Virus record (IMG/VR): IMGVR_UViG_3300031578_000005
Location: 64,514-128,513 of that record
Source of the DNA: a virus
Strand: one strand, 5' to 3'
DNA: 64,000 bases
The stretch's first letter is position 1; the number at the start of each line of letters is the position of its first letter. Positions 9,712-64,000 of this stretch are shown piece after piece. A program made the position numbers and the translations under genes. The notes beneath the pieces were generated by a model. That model had not been told where the DNA came from and ran no database searches. It saw only the letters and a program-made list of their open reading frames with translations.

Positions 9712-10941
9712 ATGCAATTAGTTGAACAACATATTATCAATCGTAATCATATATTCTATAATGAATGTGATTCGTTATGTTTTAAAACTAAAAATCTATA
9801 TAATTCATGTTTATATGTCATACGTCAGGCATATATCAATGATAAGGTTAATTTATTATATGATTTACACTCATTAATGAAAGATACTGAACAGTATAAA
9901 GAACTACCCGCTAAAGTGTCTTCCACAGTGTTGTTAATGATTCAAAAGAATTTCAAATCTTATTTCAAATCAAATGCAGAATTTTATAAAAATTCATCTA
10001 AATTTAAAGATAGACCTAAATTACCCAATTATTTGGATAAAATAAATGGTAGATATTTTGCTTCATATACAAATCAAGCCATATCAAAAAAAGTGTTTAA
10101 TAAATCACATAAAATATTATTATCTAAAACCAACATCGAGTTAACAACCAAAATAGTTGATTTTAATATCATCGATTGTGTTAGAATTGTACCGAGATTA
10201 GACCACTATGTTATTGAAATAGTATATACCATTCCAGATAAACCTAAATTACCTAACAATAATAAATATTTATCTATTGATTTTGGTGTTAATAATTTAG
10301 CAACAATAACGTCAAATGTTAAAGATGTTAAACCTATTATTATTAATGGTAGACCATTAAAATCAATTAATCAATATTATAACAAAAAACTGGCACACTA
10401 TAAATCTAAATTAGAATTGATTAATAAAAAGAAACATAGCAATAGGACAAGGAAATTGACTAACAAAAGAAAAAATAAAGTTGATTATTATTTACATAAA
10501 GCAAGTAAGACAATTGTTAGTTTAACAAAAAACAATAATATTAACACCATAATAATAGGTAAGAACGATAATTGGAAACAAGGTATCAACATGACAAAGG
10601 CTAATAATCAAAACTTTGTTAATATACCACATAGTAGATTTATAGATATGATTATTTATAAATGCGAAATAGAAGGAATCAATGTTATACTACAAGAAGA
10701 AAGTTACACAAGTAAAGCATCTTTTTTAAACTTAGATAATATACCTATTTATGGTGATAATCAAAAAAAGCATTTCAGTGGTTATCGTTATAACAGGGGT
10801 TTATATAAAATAAGAGGAAGAAAAGAATTTATTAATGCAGATGTGAATGGTAGTTATAACATATTAAGAAAAGCAATCCCAAAAGCATTTGCTGATGGGA
10901 TAGAGGGTATAGGAGTATATCCAATTAAACTTATGATTTAA
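9712..10941 (+). mobile_element. tnpB: IS200/IS605-family TnpB (RNA-guided nuclease); no tnpA seen (IS1341-like)
   Basis: RuvC motifs SIDFGVNNLA, QEESYTSK and INADVNGSYNI; OrfB-like N-terminus. Confidence 0.85.
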
Positions 10942-35290: not shown

Positions 35291-35606
35291 ATATCAATAC
35301 GAGTTAAAATAATAATCTAAAACTACTATCATGAATGAAGTTAAGGTTAATGGCAGCACTTACTATGCCGATGTAAGGAATAGAATTCTTTATGAAGACC
35401 GGGAAAAAACCAAAGGGACTCCCTTTTCATTCCTAACAAAAAATGAACTGGAACAAGTTGAAAGAGAATTAAGATTCCCTCGAACAAAAAAAGTTGATAA
35501 GGACTAAATAAACATGTTTTAATTAAAAACCCTTGTAACATCTACAGGGGTTTTTACGTATAATAACTATAAGCAATTATAATATTAACTTAAAATACTT
35601 AAAGCA

Positions 35607-36152: not shown

Positions 36153-36199
36153 GTATTAAACCCTTGTAACATCTACAGGGGTTTTTACGTATAATAACT

Positions 36200-38241: not shown

Positions 38242-38429
38242 AACAATGATTTATATTTTAACTATTGTTGGTGTTATAGTCGGAATCAATCTGATATTGT
38301 TCGGATATGTTCTATGAAAATTGTACAAATGGTCAAAGGATATTCATCCTAAAGATCAAAATGATGAAGTGTAACATCTACTGATAATGTTCGTATAACA
38401 ACTATAAAAAACAATTAAATTTTACGATA

Positions 38430-39200
38430 ATGAAAATTTCAACATTAAAAATATTACTAAAATATTGCACTAAAGATCAGATTAGAAATGCTGATTTTAG
38501 TGGTGCTAATTTTAGTCGTGCTGATTTTAGTGGTGCTGATTTTAGACATGCTAATTTTAGTGGTGCTGATTTTGGTTATGCTAATTTTAGAGATGCTAAT
38601 TTTAGACATGCTGATTTTAGTGGTGCTGATTTTGGTTATGCTGATTTTAGAGATGCTGATTTTAGACATGCTGATTTTAGTGGTGCTGATTTTAGTGGTG
38701 CTAATTTTAGTTATGCTAATTTTAGAGATGCTAATTTTGGTTATGCTAATTTTAGTTATGCTAATTTTGGTTATGCTAATTTTAGAGATGCTAATTTTGG
38801 TTATGCTAATTTTAGTGGTGCTGATTTTAGTCGTGCTGATTTTAGTATAATAATTAATGAAAATACTTTTGGTTTAACAATTAATTGTCCTTTAGAAGGA
38901 TCATTTATTGGATATAAGAAAACCGGTGGCTATATCATTGTACTTGAAATATGTAGTGATTCAAAAAGAAGTTCAGCCACTACATATAAATGTCGTGCAT
39001 CAAAAACTAAAACAATAAGAATTGAAAATATTGATAAAACAATTGCTGATATTACGAAGATTTCTAGTGGTTATGATTCAAATTTTATTTATGAAATTGG
39101 TAAAATAAATGAAGTTAATAATTTTGATGATAATCGTTGGAATGAATGCTCAACAGGAATACATTTTTTCATGTCACGTCAAATGGCAGTTAATTATTAA
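38430..39200 (+). CDS. Pentapeptide-repeat protein with DUF5758-like C-terminus
   Basis: ~23 A(D/N)F(S/R/G)x repeats (15-bp DNA repeat, 38488-38845), then GSFIGYKK..KCRA..ECSTGIHFF. Confidence 0.85.
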   Translation: MKISTLKILLKYCTKDQIRNADFSGANFSRADFSGADFRHANFSGADFGYANFRDANFRHADFSGADFGYADFRDADFRHADFSGADFSGANFSYANFRDANFGYANFSYANFGYANFRDANFGYANFSGADFSRADFSIIINENTFGLTINCPLEGSFIGYKKTGGYIIVLEICSDSKRSSATTYKCRASKTKTIRIENIDKTIADITKISSGYDSNFIYEIGKINEVNNFDDNRWNECSTGIHFFMSRQMAVNY

Positions 39201-40980: not shown

Positions 40981-41083
40981 ATCCCTCACAGACGAATTTA
41001 AAAAATCTGTGAGGGTTTTTTATTTTGTAACATTTCCTGATAAATTTCGTATAATAACTATAAACCAATTAAATTATAAGACA

Positions 41084-47291: not shown

Positions 47292-48632
47292 ATGAAAACA
47301 ATTAAAGACTTTACACCAGAAATACAATCAAAAATTCCTGAATATATTAAAAAATATACTGAGGGAATTGAAGATGGAAAACGATATAAGAATTTCAATT
47401 TAACTGATGCTGAAAATCTAATTCATTGGAATTATGAATTATGTAATTATAAAAAACCTGTTATTATTGTTGCTGAAAATCCCTTTGAATCACAAATAAT
47501 CTTTAATTATATCGTAGCAAATAAAGAACGGTTTTTGCCAATGTTGTATTTAATATATTCATTAAAAAATAACATAAAAGAAAATATTGAGAAATTTTTT
47601 GTGAAAGGTTCTCAACTAGATTCTCAACTACATTCTCAACTAGATTCTCAACTACATTCTCAACTAGGTTCTCAACTACGTTCTCAACTAGATTCTCAAC
47701 TACATTCTCAACTAGGTTCTCAACTACGTTCTCAACTACATTCTCAACTACATTCTCAACTACGTTCTCAACTACATTCTCAACTAGGTTCTCAACTACA
47801 TTCTCAACTACTTTCTCAACTAGGTTCTCAACTAGATTCTCAACTACTTTCTCAACTACGTTCTCAACTACGTTCTCAACTACTTTTTCAACTACATTCT
47901 CAATATAATAATGATTGGTTATTTACTACTAATATTTATTCCAATGTATTAATTTCGTGGTTTATGTTTATAAAAGATGAATTTAATATTGAATCAGAAA
48001 TTGGTATTAAATTAGATTCATGGAATGATTTGTATTTAAAATCAAACATTTATTCTGCAATATTTTCTGAACTAGTGTGTGTTGTAAGTAAATATCCACA
48101 AAAGATACATAGAAATACTGATGGTTTATTACATAATTTAGATGGAAATGCTGTTGAATGGAATTCAATTTCAGTTGAAACCAAATTTGATTGTTATTAT
48201 ATTAATGGTCGAAATATGCCATCATGGATTTTTGATAAATTCAAAAATAATCAATTACAAAAAGAAGATTTTTTAAATGAAGAAAATGAAGATATTAAAG
48301 CCGGGATATATGAATTGATTGAAAGTAAAGGTGAGGGCAGTATGTTGACATTTTTAAATGCTATTGAGGTAGATAGAAAAACAATACCCCATGAATATGG
48401 TGAAGAAGAATTTATATTGTACAAGACAAAAGAAAAATTCAATGAAGAAGTGGATTTAAATGGTAATTCTCCATCAGAATTGGCTTGGTTAAAAATGACA
48501 TGTCCCTCAACCGGATCAAATTATCTAATTCCTTCGGATGCAAGTTTTAATGACTGTGTTACTGCAGCAAAATATCATCGGCCAATTTTTGTACCAGAAG
48601 ATATTCCATATTATTGGAATAGTAGAAACTAA
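47292..48632 (+). CDS. DUF6745-like protein with SQLx tetrapeptide repeat tract
   Basis: ~24 x 12-bp ttctcaactaNN at 47609-47903; LHNLDG.A..W, MTCPSTG..Y motifs. Confidence 0.7.
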   Translation: MKTIKDFTPEIQSKIPEYIKKYTEGIEDGKRYKNFNLTDAENLIHWNYELCNYKKPVIIVAENPFESQIIFNYIVANKERFLPMLYLIYSLKNNIKENIEKFFVKGSQLDSQLHSQLDSQLHSQLGSQLRSQLDSQLHSQLGSQLRSQLHSQLHSQLRSQLHSQLGSQLHSQLLSQLGSQLDSQLLSQLRSQLRSQLLFQLHSQYNNDWLFTTNIYSNVLISWFMFIKDEFNIESEIGIKLDSWNDLYLKSNIYSAIFSELVCVVSKYPQKIHRNTDGLLHNLDGNAVEWNSISVETKFDCYYINGRNMPSWIFDKFKNNQLQKEDFLNEENEDIKAGIYELIESKGEGSMLTFLNAIEVDRKTIPHEYGEEEFILYKTKEKFNEEVDLNGNSPSELAWLKMTCPSTGSNYLIPSDASFNDCVTAAKYHRPIFVPEDIPYYWNSRN

Positions 48633-52017: not shown

Positions 52018-52234
52018 CAACATAAAAACATCTGGCTATGACAACAACAGAAATAATACTATCATCAATCATTTGCTTATGATATTCATATCACATAAAC
52101 CAATAAAAACAATATGTGATAACGGATGGTTAGACAATCCCAAACTTGCAGCTTTATTGTGGCCACTAGGATTTTTGGCGATGTTTTTGGCAGCTATTAC
52201 TGTAGTTTTAAACATATCTTCAACAACAAATACA

Positions 52235-52847
52235 GTTATATGCAATGCTACGTTTGTGCTTCGTGTTAAGTTTCATCGTAACATTCTTTTTGTTTTATTT
52301 TCCCAACGCTCTTAAAAATTCATTAATACTTTTAGTTGTTTCAAAACCTTCACCCGTGTGAAAAAAATAGTTTTGAAGTTTTCCATTTCGAGTTATAAAC
52401 CCTTGTGATTTAACCTTTGTTGGTATTCCCATATATGGTGTTTTACCATCAACATCATCTGAATCTATAATTGTGTATTTTTCTCCATAGTTAGCACCAT
52501 TATAAAAGTCTTCTTTTCCAGAAACCTTAATATCATATTTACCCAACACATAAATAATTCCATTTACGGAATCTGGTTCAATTTCAGTGTTTTCATTTAA
52601 CTTTCCACCAAAGTTTTTCACTTGGTCAATTAATTTTCTCATTTCGTTTTCCATATATTTTATTTTACATATAAATATTCAGAATTAAATTTTCCACCAC
52701 ACAAAAATAAAACAAAAGGGTTCATCTCTCGTATCAAGTTTATTGTTAAATCCGCACAGCATATAACAACGTGTATAAAATATAGCCAATTAAGGTCTGT
52801 GGTTTATATCAAATGTTGTGTGTGGCTACGTTTCATACACGCAGCCG
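52235..52847. mobile_element. Solitary attC-like cassette, inverted relative to the 56-64 kb array
   Basis: Starts GTTATATGC (52235), ends GCATATAAC (52759-52767), then hairpin gtgtat..tagcc...ggcta..atacac and GTT (52847). Confidence 0.7.
52295..52654 (-). CDS. Cassette cargo protein with MRKLID..LNE N-terminus
   Basis: 119-aa ORF; TATTTAT motif upstream. Confidence 0.6.
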   Translation of the reverse strand: MENEMRKLIDQVKNFGGKLNENTEIEPDSVNGIIYVLGKYDIKVSGKEDFYNGANYGEKYTIIDSDDVDGKTPYMGIPTKVKSQGFITRNGKLQNYFFHTGEGFETTKSINEFLRALGK

Positions 52848-52997
52848 TTAGCATAATCAACACTGACATTAGTATGAGTTTAAGTATGGATTAAAGAACA
52901 AATATTATAATTTGATGTTTTTTGTAACATCTACAGGATTTTTACGTATAGGAATTAAATAATTAAAACAATAAATTCAATCTAAAAACTTCTGACT

Positions 52998-60122: not shown

Positions 60123-60224
60123 CCGCAATGCTGGCATTAATTTTTATTGTGGGTAACGTTGAGTATTGGCGTTTGTTGCCGATTAGAAAGCACTTAATTA
60201 TCAAATTACTAAACACTTTATAAA

Positions 60225-60428
60225 ATGGAAAATACTTCAAATACCCACGAAAACGGCAATAACGCTAATACTGTGTTATGTGGCGTTATTGATAGGATAT
60301 TAACCGAAAAGAAAGTAGATAGTTGTCCCAAAATATTACCACAATGCCAATTAGGTGATGTTTGCATATTATGTGATACAATGACTAAAGATAAGCCTAA
60401 AAACTGTCTTAGACATAATGCCACATAA
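60225..60428 (+). CDS. Cassette ORF, Cys-rich, with MENTSNTHENG leader
   Basis: Starts in loop; stop is core TAAC. Confidence 0.55.
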   Translation: MENTSNTHENGNNANTVLCGVIDRILTEKKVDSCPKILPQCQLGDVCILCDTMTKDKPKNCLRHNAT

Positions 60429-60495
60429 CGTTGAGTATTGGCGTTGTTGCCGATTAGAAACCACAAAATTATTAATTTACTAAATACTTTATAAA

Positions 60496-60708
60496 ATGGA
60501 AAATACTTCAAATACCCACGAAAACGGCAATTGCGCTAACCGTGTGTTAGCGGTTGTTACTCCTGAAATGGAGCAATTCGCAAGTGAATATGGTTTATTT
60601 ATCATATCAGTAGGGCAAAAATATATCAATGCTTTATCGCCTGATTTTACGACAGAAAGCAGTATGGAAATATTTAAACGTGAGTATTGGGGTCGGAAGT
60701 GGTTTTAA
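60496..60708 (+). CDS. Cassette ORF with same MENTSNTHENG leader
   Basis: Hairpin near-identical to 60154-60278. Confidence 0.55.
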   Translation: MENTSNTHENGNCANRVLAVVTPEMEQFASEYGLFIISVGQKYINALSPDFTTESSMEIFKREYWGRKWF

Positions 60709-60822
60709 TAACCGCTAACGTTGACAATAAGAAATGTATGGGATTTAGAAGCAGTAACCTATCCACATACACCGAACTAAATTAAATTTGCATTTGTAAT
60801 TATATTTGTGTATATTTGTAGT

Positions 60823-61377
60823 ATGAAAGCATACGTTTATACACATACAAGATTAGATACCAATGAAATATTTTATGTTGGCATTGGAACACAAGACAAT
60901 TACAGGAGGGCATCAAAAACGGTAAATAGGTCTGTATTTTGGAAAAACATAATAAATAAAACTGGATGGAAAGTAGATATTGTTTTTGATAATTTAAGTT
61001 GGGATAAAGCTTGTGAAATAGAAAAAGAATTAATAATAAAATATGGGCGTAAAGATTTATGTTTAGGTAGTTTAGTTAATTTAACAGACGGAGGTGACGG
61101 AAATTCTGGAAGAAAAATATCACAAGAAACAAGACAAAAAATGTCAAATATGAAAAAAGGCGTTCCAAAATCTGATGAACATAAAAAAAATATGAGTATA
61201 GCACTAAAAAACAATAACAGTACAAAAGTGATTGATACAAATACAGGCTTTATTTATAATTCTGTACACGAAGCAGCTGAAGAAAATGGGTTAAAAAACT
61301 ATGTTTTAAGTAACTACTTAACTGGTAGAACGAAAAACAACACGACATTAAAATATTATATTGATAAAACTTGTTAA
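60823..61377 (+). CDS. GIY-YIG-like homing endonuclease with NUMOD3/NUMOD1-like DNA-binding modules
   Basis: YVYTH..FYVGIG..R; LVNLTDGGDG; SQETRQKMS..SDEHKKNMS; YNSVHEAA; upstream TAnnTTTG promoter. Confidence 0.75.
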   Translation: MKAYVYTHTRLDTNEIFYVGIGTQDNYRRASKTVNRSVFWKNIINKTGWKVDIVFDNLSWDKACEIEKELIIKYGRKDLCLGSLVNLTDGGDGNSGRKISQETRQKMSNMKKGVPKSDEHKKNMSIALKNNNSTKVIDTNTGFIYNSVHEAAEENGLKNYVLSNYLTGRTKNNTTLKYYIDKTC

Positions 61378-61505
61378 AGTTTAATTATAAAACAATTAAG
61401 GCGAAGAAGCGTAGCCTTTATGAACGCTTCATAGTACAACTGCACAATTTGGCACAAACACCCATATATTTTTTATTGTGTGTTACCACCAGTATTTTAT
61501 TCATC

Positions 61506-61673
61506 ATGGCTAAAAAAACTAATAAGAAAATTAACTGGAGTAAATGTGATAAACCTTACAAAGAGATATTTCACGGAATTTGCTTCAATTATTGCATAAA
61601 TCGAAACTGCTTAATATCGAAAGAAACGTGTGTCGCTTATCAAAAATGGGATAAGTCCGATGGGGTCTTTTAA
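61506..61673 (+). CDS. Cassette ORF, small Cys-rich
   Basis: Between GTT 61482 and TAAC 61683. Confidence 0.45.
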   Translation: MAKKTNKKINWSKCDKPYKEIFHGICFNYCINRNCLISKETCVAYQKWDKSDGVF

Positions 61674-61726
61674 TATTGGCGGTAACGGTTGCAAATATGA
61701 AACGTTACAACACAAATGATAATTAA

Positions 61727-61754
61727 TGTAACAAAAATTGAAAATTAACGTATA
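61727..61754 (+). promoter_or_regulatory. ECF-type promoter inside an attC-like loop
   Basis: TGTAAC-aaaaattgaaaattaa-CGTATA. Confidence 0.6.
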
Positions 61755-61812
61755 ATATAATTGCAACACAACAGCAATGTTTTATATTTGTTGTTATAAA
61801 CATGTAAAAATT

Positions 61813-61998: not shown

Positions 61999-62096
61999 TT
62001 TTTATTGTTTATAACATTGAATGTATGTGTAGTACAGCCTTGCACATATTTTCAACTTAAAACTAAACTTAATTGGCTGTATTACATATACATATT

Positions 62097-62216
62097 GTTA
62101 TAAAACGTTTATTATGATTGACAAACTACATACAGAAATTGAAAACTTCATAAATTCAGATAATGACTGGATGCGTAAAACCTATGAAGTCGATGAAGCA
62201 AATACTTATACACCTT
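62097..62216 (+). pseudogene. Truncated cassette fused to next right arm
   Basis: GTTATAAAAC start lacks a complementary end; ORF MIDKLH.. runs into cttatacacct-tGTTA. Confidence 0.45.
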
Positions 62217-62338
62217 GTTATATGCTGTGCGGAAATATACCACTAAACTTAAATCGAAGAACTAAACCTTTTTGTTTTATTTTTGTGGGAGGATTTTAAA
62301 AAATTGAATATTTATATAGAATAAAACTATTTAATAAT

Positions 62339-62887
62339 ATGGAATTAAGAAAATTTATAGCAACTACTATACGTGAATATTTGAACGAACAAGAAATTGG
62401 TGGAAGTGGGTTGATTTTATATCATGGTTCTGGTGAAGATAAACCATTTGAAAAATTCAATAACAATCAATTTTTCACGGTAAATGATTATATTGCATGT
62501 AATTATGCTGAAAATAATGGTGGCTTACTCTATAAGGTTAAAACAGATATAAGAAAAACTTTAGAACTTAAAGGTAATTATGTAAGTCTTGGTGGAAAAT
62601 CTATGAAAACTATCGAACCAGAACAATATGAGTTAGAATATAGTTTAGTGAAAAAATTATATGGTGATTCAGCTTTAGAACATTGGTTGAATCATGGATT
62701 TAATCCAAGTCCTGCACATGTTTTTAACGGTGATTATACAGCAATAATTAATTGGGCAAAAAATAATGGTTATGATTCTATTAAATTTTTTGATGAGTCA
62801 TTTGATACATTTGTTAGGGATATTACGTATATAATTTTTAATGGAAATAATATTAAAATTATTGATGTTAGTGAACCTGATTGCTAA
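62339..62887 (+). CDS. Putative ADP-ribosyltransferase-fold (ART-PolyVal-like) cassette cargo with IREYLNE N-terminus
   Basis: LYHGS..F..F..FFT..A..YA...GYDSI..YIIF..NIK. Confidence 0.6.
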   Translation: MELRKFIATTIREYLNEQEIGGSGLILYHGSGEDKPFEKFNNNQFFTVNDYIACNYAENNGGLLYKVKTDIRKTLELKGNYVSLGGKSMKTIEPEQYELEYSLVKKLYGDSALEHWLNHGFNPSPAHVFNGDYTAIINWAKNNGYDSIKFFDESFDTFVRDITYIIFNGNNIKIIDVSEPDC

Positions 62888-63051
62888 AAATAAAACAAAA
62901 AGAATGTTACGATGAAACTTAATACGAAGCAGAAACGCAGCATTGCATATAACGGACGGCAATATATGTAGTTGCCTTGCACAAAACTTTAAAATTATTA
63001 TAAACCTTAATAGGCAATTACATATATTGCTTGTTAGCAACAGTACGGATT

Positions 63052-63285
63052 ATGAAAAAAATTGATGAATATAGCGAAAAAGCTGGTGCTTTATTTTTGA
63101 TAGAACAGCACACTATCGGTAATTTACGTGATGAAGCTGATTTGAATAACGCCAAATATCACGCACAACAGACAGTAGGTTTTATTGAAGATTTATTGTT
63201 GAATATAGATGGTACGATTGAAGATAAGATTCAATTTCTATCAAAAATAAAGGAAGAAATACCTAAATTTCACGGTAAGGGTTAG
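63052..63285 (+). CDS. Cassette ORF, hypothetical
   Basis: Between GTT 63033 and TAAC 63295. Confidence 0.55.
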   Translation: MKKIDEYSEKAGALFLIEQHTIGNLRDEADLNNAKYHAQQTVGFIEDLLLNIDGTIEDKIQFLSKIKEEIPKFHGKG

Positions 63286-63360
63286 TATTGTTGCTAACGG
63301 TCAAGCGTAAGATACGTTGCGATTTAATGCACAAATTTTTAAACTTATAAAAACATTGAT

Positions 63361-63579
63361 ATGAAACAGAAAAATAACAAATTAGCACAATTTAAGCAAT
63401 GGATTTTACGCTTTGTTATAGGGCGTTATTTCTATTACTTATTCAATATATTAGTTGGATTGGTCATTGCTTTATTAACATATCCATTTAGATTAATAGG
63501 TGGTAAAATAGGGTTAAAATCTGATATATGCTCATGGCTCGATAAACACTTTCCATTGCCTGATGATAATGCCCTATAA
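63361..63579 (+). CDS. Cassette ORF, membrane protein
   Basis: Starts in loop; stop is core TAAC 63577. Confidence 0.55.
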   Translation: MKQKNNKLAQFKQWILRFVIGRYFYYLFNILVGLVIALLTYPFRLIGGKIGLKSDICSWLDKHFPLPDDNAL

Positions 63580-63638
63580 CGGTCGCAGATATACTAAGTT
63601 TTTGATTAAATAGTAATAATTTTAAATAACAGATAACG

Positions 63639-63887
63639 ATGAAAAATGAACAAAAATATTATAACTTACCAGACCAAAAATTTGGTATATCTGGTGTTAT
63701 TAGTAATTATTCATGTCCAATATGTGATTTAGGACATAAACCTAAAAAAGTTTTTTATATTCCAATAAAAGATAAGAATGGAATACCAAAAGATAAATCA
63801 CTAAGAGTAATAGAAGGTAGTGAATTACATAAAAAACTTTTGAATGGTGGTACAAAATTGCCTATGTGCTGGATTGTTGAAGAATAA
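63639..63887 (+). CDS. Cassette ORF with CPIC motif
   Basis: Starts in loop, reads through GTT 63696. Confidence 0.55.
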   Translation: MKNEQKYYNLPDQKFGISGVISNYSCPICDLGHKPKKVFYIPIKDKNGIPKDKSLRVIEGSELHKKLLNGGTKLPMCWIVEE

Positions 63888-64000
63888 TTACTTATAACGT
63901 TGAGTATAAGAAACGTAGCGTTTTGAAATACTGAACAACAATAACTTACAAATGTAAAATTGAAATAGAAACTTAATATTAACCACAGGCTCAGCTATGT

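Follow-up and report, generated by a model that had tools for sequence, protein, structure and literature searches.

Candidate integron-like cassette arrays in T4-type jumbo phages, with one cassette class predicted to encode head-packaged effectors

Main finding

This study concerns a 64,000-nucleotide (nt) stretch of viral DNA (IMG/VR record IMGVR_UViG_3300031578_000005, positions 64,514 to 128,513; the whole stretch is hereafter called the window) and two loci within it, W52 and W62, in which the same flanking sequences enclose different genes. We conclude, with a probability of roughly 0.6, that such loci are part of an integron-like cassette array found in virulent T4-type jumbo phages, and that one class of cassettes encodes effectors that are packaged in the phage head and probably injected. 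The observations behind this reading are the anatomy of the cassettes, the covariation of the hairpins that separate them, the linkage of the arrays to a tyrosine recombinase gene, the coupling of a leader peptide to a late-type promoter motif, and the T4-type head genes of the carriers. A more ambitious proposal, which we hold tentatively and regard as possible, is that these phages possess an integron analogue of their own, in which a compact Xer/IntI-like recombinase captures as well as reshuffles cassettes at folded TAAC...GTTA sites and a late promoter with a removable leader turns any domain placed behind it into an injected effector.

Two cassettes with a common chassis

The two loci lie on opposite strands of the window and are composed as follows.

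52235..52301, minus strand: W52 right flank, with the inner repeat by the stop codon, a middle block with AAACTTAA.ACGAAG and the right end (R-end) AGCATTGCATATAAC (52235-52249)
52295..52654, minus strand: W52 cargo open reading frame (ORF), 119 aa, with a type B leader (MENEMRKLIDQVKNFGGKLNE) at ~52592-52654 and the cargo domain at residues ~28-119
52655..52767, minus strand: W52 left flank, with a late-promoter-like AATATTTATATG (52668-52679), the inner repeat (52700-52729) and the left end (L-end) GTTATATGCTGTGCGGA (52751-52767)
52764..52850, minus strand: attC-like hairpin that spans TAAC to GTTA and borders W52 on its upstream side; 15 of 16 positions pair, 13 of these as Watson-Crick (hairpin finder)
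62206..62338, plus strand: W62 left flank, with a remnant of a hairpin 3' arm (TTATACACCTT), the L-end (62217-62233), the inner repeat (62258-62287) and a late-promoter-like AATATTTATATA (62307-62318)
62339..62887, plus strand: W62 cargo ORF, 182 aa, with a type A leader (MELRKFIATTIREYLNE) at 62339-62389, followed by an ADP-ribosyltransferase domain resembling ART-PolyVal
62887..62953, plus strand: W62 right flank, ending in the R-end AGCATTGCATATAAC (62939-62953)

The first-pass annotation had described a left flank of ~120 nt and a right flank of ~65 nt shared by the two loci, together with an inner inverted repeat and a TATTTAT motif, and had read them as a cassette into which unrelated genes are swapped. 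Both flanks are confirmed. A repeat search of the window pairs, in inverted orientation, the right flanks (52235-52301 versus 62887-62953, 67 nt at 96%), the left ends (52751-52778 versus 62206-62233, 28 nt at 96%) and the inner left blocks (52700-52729 versus 62258-62287, 30 nt at 87%), while the entire left flank shows 78% identity over 121 nt when its 133 nt are compared by BLAST with the phage's own record. The inner repeat and the TATTTAT motif are present as described. The 17-nt left end occurs exactly twice in the window, where 0.07 copies are expected and two copies were reached in 0 of 100 shuffles, and W52 and W62 are the only copies of the chassis in the own record, a 128,513-bp (128.5-kb) fragment with 29% G+C that is estimated to be 39% complete. 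The enclosed ORFs are indeed unrelated: they fall in separate BLASTP clusters, W62 being modelled as an ADP-ribosyltransferase (ART) fold and W52 belonging to a different family. Three features had been missed. The cassette ends are mutually complementary, the right end being the reverse complement of the left (GTTATATGC / GCATATAAC); a structured hairpin adjoins each cassette; and the first 17-22 cargo codons belong to the conserved chassis. Because the chassis thus includes a coding leader, the point at which cargo is swapped lies behind the leader and not at the ATG.

The same chassis is found in other viral contigs. Exact flank words occur there, and since a scan with 15-mers included chance matches, these were filtered with nhmmer flank profiles, which gave 49 left matches in 39 loci and 55 right matches in 49 loci (135 sources). 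Paired matches delimit 37 cassettes, 35 of them distinct, of 483-1649 nt. With the first 20 residues cut off, their 37 cargo ORFs of at least 60 aa sort into 24 BLASTP clusters, of which one is a spurious overlapping frame. These numbers support the swappable-cargo claim; neither a restriction of the flanks to these two genes nor a descent of the two ORFs from a common ancestor by divergence held up on testing.

W52 and one hairpin together form a block (52236-52847) that is inverted among plus-strand early genes. The plus-strand frame 52079-52234 is still open for 15 further codons past 52847, with G|TTA at both junctions, and the sequence fits the interruption of a small (67-codon) membrane-protein ORF at G|TT. 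The integron-flavoured reading of this G|TT was borne out in kind by the ...TAAC/GTTA... bounds, the attC-like hairpins and the linked recombinase of the Xer/IntI clade. No uninterrupted relative of the W52 site was found through either the upstream gene or, in viral and metagenome collections, the N-terminal part of the putatively split ORF, the exact 25 nt just past the insertion (~52849-52873) had no match, and no joint skipping 52236-52847 was listed among contigs of two soil-metagenome DNA runs. Contigs from these two runs break at the chassis, and one of them, in an independent run, matches up to 62392, the leader end, and resumes at 62886, the start of the right flank, with unknown sequence in between. 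A search of window 50-64 kb against Rfam at E<=10, intron and ribozyme models included, recognised no family in the elements, the 5 weak matches obtained being to unrelated ones.

The left and right flanks also share direct repeats, namely AAAYTT.ATACGAAG and, beside the inner repeat, TTTTGTGTGGTGG (for instance 62240-62262 versus 62909-62931, or L142 300-345 versus 800-870). The resulting order, i.e., inverted repeat, direct repeat, inverted repeat, direct repeat, gene and then the mirror series, could reflect nested insertions into hairpin loops.

Folded sites and self-complementary cassette ends

Cassettes sit in tandem arrays with a hairpin of ~90 nt between neighbours, laid out as ...TAAC, ~5 unpaired nt, a stem of ~20 bp, a loop of ~34 nt, the other arm, 2 unpaired nt and GTTA.... 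The hairpin finder, which scored Watson-Crick pairs only, returned 68 distinct hairpins, including some A/T-only artefacts and some opposite-strand readings. Mismatches in these 68 comprise 84 of the type G (5' arm):T (3' arm), 4 T:G, 8 A:C and 4 C:A. Covariation was analysed in the 36 hairpins with an AAC flank, minus 3 opposite-strand readings, i.e., 33 hairpins aligned on a 22-pair structure. In these, 96.5% of cells are paired, compared with 71.8% in shuffled alignments (reached in 0 of 500) and 30-52% when the partners are slid, and double-sided changes number 158 against 47.9 in shuffles, with compensatory changes in 13 of 16 stem pairs. The TAAC and GTTA cores are invariant and one pair is G.T in 33/33. 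The core reads GTTA[TG]N.., a partial fit to the GTTRRRY of attC sites.

Strand-specific G.T pairs imply that selection favours folding of the coding-strand RNA or else of one particular DNA strand; read on the opposite strand, these positions become A.C mismatches. Extrahelical bases mark strand choice in attC sites and, by analogy, the A.C positions could act as strand-choice marks. We infer both that the recombinase acts on the hairpins and which nucleic-acid strand folds.

The second structural feature is the complementarity of the cassette ends, a cassette beginning with GTTA... and closing with ...TAAC. The first sample contained at least 7 L-end/R-end types, most with their own inner repeat, and the end sequences are cassette-specific. 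Since adjoining cassettes may differ in type, it is within a single cassette that the ends are complementary. This complementarity was quantified in a bracket test on 140 distinct inter-hairpin units taken from recombinase loci, with a median length of 353 nt and 88 different end 12-mers. The two ends of a unit pair without interruption over a median of 10 bp, and pairing reaches at least 9 bp in 88 of the 140 units versus 75 of 1391 non-own combinations. In 81 of the 83 units of at least 300 nt, the strand of the hairpins also carries the longest ORF. Two other measures of pairing were rejected: RNAduplex flank energies, which did not discriminate (own-pair median -52.9 versus -44.2 when shuffled), and single best local alignments, which were weak (16 versus 10); both gave way to block and bracket counts.

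A tyrosine recombinase at the downstream end of the arrays

A ~268-aa protein that combines Phage_integrase and Phage_int_SAM_4 domains is encoded in three of five large related contigs, among them both complete genomes with direct terminal repeats (288 and 311 kb). Its best sequence matches in the PDB are an archaeal XerC-like protein and the Vibrio IntI4 (2a3v), the latter in two stretches. In the cassette-first sample, the recombinase gene falls within the fetched stretch of 12 of 51 leader-bearing loci (8 distinct), always on the strand of the leader ORF and 0.5-4.5 kb downstream. In the complete genome G001, five of the six leader genes and five of the nine hairpins form a single 4.3-kb array that abuts the recombinase gene. 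A cassette R-end precedes the recombinase gene of the array loci, followed directly by TAT[CT/TA]ATATA in 6 of 8 loci and with an offset of 3 nt in one more; no inverted partner of the R-end was found after the gene.

The reciprocal, recombinase-first sample comprises 80 loci, 67 of them distinct, and upstream counts use the 48 loci with at least 1.5 kb of upstream sequence. Family hairpins occur within 5 kb upstream and on the same strand in 45/48 loci, with 0 on the opposite strand, and within 5 kb downstream in 0/64 loci, the totals being 185 upstream versus 0 downstream. Leader ORFs are present upstream in 12/48 recombinase loci and nowhere else. Contigs end less than 1.5 kb from the recombinase on the upstream side in 19 loci versus 3 on the downstream side, as repeats would cause. 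The genes just downstream of the recombinase differ between G001 (L149 8855-9727) and G002 (L150 10329-11021), one being a sigma-70-like factor with a late motif and the other a SIR2-family protein.

In the proposed mechanism, the recombinase would excise and insert cassettes at the TAAC/GTTA cores, and homologous recombination between conserved flanks would shuffle them further, among other things by exchanging the cargo domain that follows the leader.

The end of the window (61.68-63.70 kb) is itself a plus-strand array of five hairpins that reaches the contig end. Besides W62, it contains the following features.

61683..61796, plus strand: hairpin H1, first of the terminal array (hairpin finder)
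62012..62100, plus strand: hairpin H2, upstream of a composite unit in which a 61-aa ORF remnant (62114-62299) is fused to W62
62950..63036, plus strand: hairpin H3, directly after the W62 R-end
63033..63298, plus strand: unit U3, with a 77-aa ORF (63052-63285) and complementary ends GTTAGCAACAGTAC ... GTATTGTTGCTAAC
63295..63418, plus strand: hairpin H4 (hairpin finder)
63415..63580, plus strand: unit U4, with complementary ends GTTATAGGGCGTTAT ... GATAATGCCCTATAAC
63577..63699, plus strand: hairpin H5, the last before the contig end at window position 64000

Units U1, U3 and U4 obey the bracket rule, and the composite unit of W62 consists of the 61-aa ORF remnant, the hairpin-arm remnant and the left flank proper to W62. 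The rule drawn from the recombinase-first sample predicts a recombinase just past window position 64000. The loop of H1 is enlarged and holds an early-promoter-like motif (61727-61761); judging from this hairpin, loops may host promoters.

A conserved leader peptide coupled to a late-type motif

Most cargos begin with leader A (MELRKFIATTIREYLNE), while W52 and some others begin with leader B, M..E[IM]R[KQE][MLY]ID[KQ]VKNF...[LIV]NE. The leaders are 17-22 aa long, end in LNE, INE, VNE, LTE, LIE or FNE, and precede at least 20 unrelated cargos. In the 31 type-0 leader-A cassettes, conservation extends from ...CTTATACACCTT-GTTATATGC through the last leader codon, then collapses, sets in again ~25 nt ahead of the stop codon and lasts until GCATATAAC-GG. 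Pairwise codon differences in the leaders of these 31 cassettes are mostly synonymous (1453 versus 421 non-synonymous), and arginine is encoded by AGA, AGG, CGA, CGC and CGT. The dominance of synonymous changes and the use of five Arg codons indicate that selection on the leader acts on the peptide. In the AlphaFold models, each leader is a detached helix, and the xNE lies in the low-confidence linker that comes next (mean pLDDT 75.8 for W52 and 75.1 for W62). Three further leader-B genes with the same promoter-proximal sequence are present in the own genome (C1:165-674, 61293-61685 and 61977 onward).

The chassis also carries a TATTTATA motif that is common to the structural genes of the phage and is likely a late promoter. 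TATTTAT lies within 60 nt upstream of 20 of the 49 genes in the structural half, that of the prohead protease included, where chance gives 0.044 per 60 nt. It precedes at this distance only 4 of the 77 early-region genes, two of the four being W52 and W62; a CGTATAAT-type motif is found instead at 36 of these 77. The signal appears only relative to start codons, the 12-mer AATATTTATATA not being enriched across the window (7 matches versus 9 expected). Leader and late motif are tightly coupled: of the 99 ORFs of 60 aa or more in the inter-hairpin units, 15 carry the two together and 82 lack the two, with 1 ORF showing the motif alone and 1 the leader alone (Fisher p = 1.2e-15).

These cassettes reside in genomes with a T4-type head. 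The own genome encodes, in T4 gene order, a major capsid protein of the Gp23 family (PF07068, 245 bits) and a Peptidase_S77 prohead protease (PF03420, 67 bits), and the capsid protein reads ...MINE|SS, with INE at residues 58-60. The S77 protease is present in 4/5 large cassette-bearing contigs, both complete genomes included (2/2). In T4, according to PMC5694885, gp21 strips N-terminal propeptides off gp23 (65 residues), gp24, Alt and the internal proteins, propeptides of 10-20 residues serve as capsid-targeting sequences, and Alt is processed at ITE and LTE. The internal proteins of T-even phages are presented, in PMC3012670, as a highly diverse, defence-countering set with only the capsid-targeting sequence in common.

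Altogether, a scheme can be drawn in which the special cassette class carries its own late promoter (TATTTATA), which would ensure late transcription. The leader, amphipathic, N-terminal, 17-22 aa long and ending in [LIVF]xE, would be a capsid-targeting propeptide, which takes the protein into the prohead and which the S77 protease then cuts off. The cargo, i.e., the ADP-ribosyltransferase of W62 or the domain of W52, would thereby be packaged and injected with the DNA, like T4's internal proteins and its Alt. It is from these genes that we infer the late transcription, packaging and cleavage of the leader cargos.

Cargo diversity

Twenty of the 37 cargos were compared with Pfam. Two score above the curated cut-offs, namely L020 (ART-PolyVal, 55.4 bits) and a GNAT at 31.1 bits; the matches of an HExxH protein and of a PARP-like protein are weak, and 8 of the 20 match no Pfam family at E<=0.1. 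In an alignment, several BLAST clusters prove to be remote ART relatives sharing YHG[ST]...G.YF[ST], so that truly unrelated folds number fewer than 24 yet clearly more than a handful. Among the 20 longest non-leader array cargos, 8 exceed a Pfam cut-off: four DNA methyltransferases, the Thoeris inhibitor Tad6, an RNA ligase, a 3'-5' exoribonuclease and a domain of unknown function. One locus (L019 844-2492) holds, within a single bracket, two tandem leader-A genes encoding a 237-aa HExxH protein and an ART of 217 aa; the second gene comes with a late motif of its own, and no hairpin separates the two.

As modelled, the W62 cargo is an ART fold of the H-Y-E, ART-PolyVal kind. It matches PF18760 (ART-PolyVal) at 27.1 bits, below the 31.2 cut-off, which is exceeded by its BLAST cluster-mate L020. 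The AlphaFold 2 model retrieves ART folds at Foldseek probabilities of 0.99-1.0, the best PDB matches being 9k3a_B from a cyanophage pre-ejectosome (E = 1e-4) and the anti-CRISPR 6kyf (1.5e-4), which we take to be the ADP-ribosylating AcrIF11, followed by PARPs and diphtheria toxin. His29 of the W62 YHGS is invariant in a 15-sequence alignment. In Iyer et al. (PMC5512222), ARTs of this clade in phage polyvalent proteins are predicted to be packaged and injected.

The W52 cargo matches no Pfam family and no PDB fold at E<=0.001, and atlas scores of 0.77 are uninformative. It has 20 metagenomic relatives, which carry leader B, other N-termini or none (leaderless in 5 of 21 proteins). Its AlphaFold 2 model consists of a helix (2-13), a low-confidence linker (16-23) and then the domain.

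In a search for cultured relatives, the phage collection was compared with both loci by blastn; the sole matches were two short ones, to uncultured huge-phage records. A 19-nt word of the right flank, used to look for hosts, matched 8 stretches of prokaryote assemblies, mostly short contigs of metagenome-assembled genomes with mixed bin labels; its match in an Aquimarina chromosome lies inside mutL and was set aside as chance.

Weighing the interpretation

Several observations weigh against the reading of these loci as integron-like arrays with head-packaged cargo. The percentage of paired hairpin positions is inflated because the hairpin finder picked the hairpins; the covariation and the invariant G.T are not affected. 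A folded RNA would account for the strand-specific G.T pairs no less than a folded single-stranded DNA would. PF00589 has no match in the own record, so no recombinase was found there, in a record that is 39% complete and whose array reaches the contig end. In the other phages, the best NCBIfam matches of the recombinase are to XerA/integron integrase, at 177-179 bits and below the 220 cut-off, and to integron integrase TIGR02249, with which the three recombinases of 267-268 aa reach 152-157 bits, in two stretches and below the 265 cut-off; they score 95-112 bits with NF011946, below its cut-off of 435. The recombinase is also without the IntI-specific insert and, unlike intI, is encoded downstream of the array and co-oriented with it. 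Just 12 of the 48 arrays have leader cassettes. No excised circle, empty site or recombination junction was observed in the contig data, and tblastn with the W62 protein, or with its first 24 residues, found no match in cultured phages. Finally, [LIV]NE at residues 11-26 occurs in 10 of 182 ORFs versus ~6.5 expected, so barely enriched that the motif alone is weak evidence.

Recombination by homology alone, as described for the promoter early stem-loop (PeSL) elements, is unlikely but remains a serious contender. The hairpins and brackets would then be RNA elements (terminators, attenuators, or elements of processing or stability) that supply homology, and the recombinase an unrelated gene of the array. 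According to PMC2839356 and PMC4122927, T4-type phages do shuffle ORFs via repeated promoter/stem-loop modules and form mini-circles, and PeSL stems also hold G-T pairs (PMC2839356). A coding-strand bias of G:T over A:C is what selection at the RNA level yields, the flanking of type-0 cassettes by different hairpin variants on both sides implies that exchange points are not fixed, and the recombinase falls below the IntI and XerA cut-offs. However, chance or general plasticity would poorly explain an association between hairpins and recombinase that is strictly directional and near-universal (45/48 upstream, 0/64 downstream). Homologous recombination leaves unexplained both the self-complementary unit ends, which exist in 88 sequence versions, and the invariant non-Watson-Crick pair at a fixed distance from the TAAC/GTTA cores. 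The cassette flanks, moreover, have a late-type motif and not sigma70-type early promoters.

As for the leader, it is rather doubtful that it is something other than a capsid-targeting sequence. It might be a translation-initiation or mRNA element that is coding by chance, an oligomerisation or chaperone-binding helix, an inhibitory pro-segment, or another virion or host tag. Such roles would suit the weak genome-wide enrichment of [LIV]NE near N-termini, the existence of leaderless W52 relatives, whose domain can thus work untagged, and a leader helix modelled with moderate confidence only. The turnover of synonymous codons nevertheless points to selection on the peptide and not on the RNA, and the leader is almost perfectly coupled to a late motif common to the head genes. 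Its hydrophobic-x-Glu end resembles T4 processing sites in a phage that encodes a T4-type protease, and its 17-22 aa match the 10-20 residues given for T4 capsid-targeting sequences in PMC5694885. The T4 internal proteins, as described in PMC3012670, display the same pattern of diverse proteins that share only the tag.

It is very improbable that the cassettes are non-autonomous transposons, similar to miniature inverted-repeat transposable elements or to IS200/IS605, that are mobilised in trans by the transposase of a TnpB-associated element or by a Y1/HUH enzyme. The cassettes do bear terminal inverted repeats (GTTATATGC / GCATATAAC), the hairpins are strand-specific imperfect palindromes, the W52 block is apparently inserted 3' of a TAAC and itself ends in TAAC, and a TnpB-like ORF is present in the window (9712-10938; OrfB_IS605, 75 bits). 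Yet the own record has no Y1 transposase and 0/5 related large contigs have a serine recombinase, the inverted repeats vary among cassettes (at least 88 versions in 140 units) and so fit a single transposase poorly, and the cassettes stand in ordered, co-oriented arrays beside a tyrosine recombinase. The TnpB-like ORF also has a Cas12f1-like TNB domain (34 bits) and has the late-type TATTTATA motif in front of it. Outside the window, at C1:43510-44166, a small serine recombinase (Resolvase, 70.7 bits), which among these genomes is found in the own record only, lies directly upstream of an 878-aa ORF.

A simple local duplication in which one gene diverged, or a structured RNA such as a group I intron carrying an ORF, has practically no chance: two copies in one genome with conserved flanks, and upstream ORFs that read in-frame into the left flank in three cases, might suggest it, but it is refuted by the varied cargos, unrelated in sequence and fold, on the same flanks in dozens of other phages and by the ART fold of W62, and the elements match no Rfam intron or ribozyme model and have the conserved TTATATGC word in a different reading frame in the LR745206 copy.

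Other features of the window and of the record

Upstream of many small plus-strand ORFs in window 30000-58100, a motif TTGTAAC..(short stem, often CCCTG..CAGGG)..ACGTATAAT is very frequent (e.g., 35533-35566, 36164-36197 and 41016-41073), and its CGTAT[AT][AGT] part lies within 60 nt of the start in 36 of the 77 early-region genes. This motif of window 30-58 kb looks like an early promoter with an embedded stem-loop, i.e., a counterpart of the PeSLs of T4-type phages. A 189-aa ORF (60808-61377) within window 60747-61446 is skipped in some contigs of both soil-metagenome runs, with joints from 60786/60747 to 61434-61446, and is therefore a presence/absence polymorphism, as with a free-standing homing endonuclease; its N-terminus is GIY-YIG-like by eye, and Pfam returned no family. 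A 106-nt direct repeat (60173-60278 and 60444-60549, 90% identical, 271 nt apart) corresponds to two paralogous small ORFs starting with MENTSNTHENGN. Tandem arrays inside large ORFs, at 38422-38916 (period 15 nt, 22 registers) and 47537-47956 (12 nt, 24 registers), presumably encode 5-aa and 4-aa peptide repeats, respectively.

Two further regions lie outside the window. Beside the major capsid gene (C1:9443-12642; L140 147-3343), two adjacent large proteins fuse Mom-family and GIY-YIG nuclease domains, an unusual fusion, with one of them also containing WWE. Several upstream regions at C1:51800-62600 have tRNA-like 3' ends (..GGTTCGAATCC..), which suggests a tRNA gene cluster.

Comparison with known systems

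A 2024 preprint reportedly presents the chromosomal integrons of bacteria as biobanks of defence systems. If our reading is correct, the arrays described here would be the phage-side mirror of these biobanks, a plug-and-play arsenal of counter-defence proteins, and would explain how large virulent phages rapidly acquire and exchange injected anti-host and anti-defence enzymes. It would join two ideas previously unconnected, i.e., the integron-style capture of cassettes and the T4-style packaging of proteins by a capsid-targeting tag. The combination of hairpin, recombinase and leader would then be a sequence signature with which to mine metagenomes for such effectors, and would offer a compact recombinase/site pair as well as a short natural packaging tag from outside the T4/E. 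coli system. The collection of at least 185 hairpins, 140 cassettes and 67 recombinase loci is in itself a data set for the evolution of attC-like folded sites and of recombinases from Xer. A full-text literature search, judged by titles and abstracts, returned no account of T4-type phages in which leader-tagged late cassettes form an array linked to a recombinase.

The resemblance to integrons is extensive. Cassettes are co-oriented, mostly of a single ORF, and separated by imperfect palindromes whose structure is conserved and whose sequence varies. The sites combine ...AAC / GTT... cores with an unpaired spacer and with a stem in which certain non-Watson-Crick positions are fixed, the 5' end of a cassette pairs with its own 3' site, and a tyrosine recombinase of the Xer/IntI clade is adjacent. 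The differences concern the recombinase, which has ~268 aa, is devoid of the IntI insert, scores below the integron-integrase cut-offs and is encoded at the downstream end of the array, co-oriented with it and not divergent beside an attI. They also concern the complementary ends (9-20 bp here versus ~7) and the carrier, a virulent-looking T4-type jumbo phage. In addition, the cassettes of one class come with a coding leader and with a likely late promoter of their own, and so would not be promoterless genes driven from Pc. Clusters of predicted attC sites in virulent phages, some recombined by IntI1 and with cassettes that carry methyltransferases, have been reported in the absence of an integrase (Qi et al. 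2023, PMC9892861). The arrays described here share with them a cargo rich in methyltransferases and conflict genes, and differ from them by the linked recombinase.

The leader cassettes, for their part, recall the internal proteins and Alt of T4. In both cases the head is of T4 type, with Gp23 and the S77 protease, and unrelated small proteins, an ADP-ribosyltransferase included, share only a short N-terminal propeptide, putative here, that ends in hydrophobic-x-Glu, and belong to late genes, predicted as such here from the motif. The leaders are unrelated in detail to the T4 capsid-targeting sequences, somewhat longer (17-22 aa) and of two types. They stand in bracketed, presumably mobile cassettes linked to a recombinase, and the ART is, as modelled, of the H-Y-E / ART-PolyVal kind, in contrast to the R-S-E of Alt.

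Two other systems of modular exchange can be compared. Like PeSLs, the cassettes involve repeated regulatory or stem-loop modules around non-essential ORFs in hyperplastic regions, with G-T pairs in the stems, and it is through such modules that genes are inserted, deleted and replaced. A PeSL joins a sigma70-type early promoter to a terminator and works by homologous recombination; the cassette flanks are without the PeSL arrangement of -35/-10 plus stem-loop and have, instead, a late-type motif, TAAC/GTTA cores, cassette-specific long-range complementary ends and a linked recombinase. Similarly, the Xer-dependent dif modules of Acinetobacter plasmids are discrete gene modules with inverted Xer-type sites that are shuffled between replicons. 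In contrast to these modules, the phage arrays yield no dif-like 11-6-11 site; their sites are long hairpins, and the phage encodes the recombinase beside the array.

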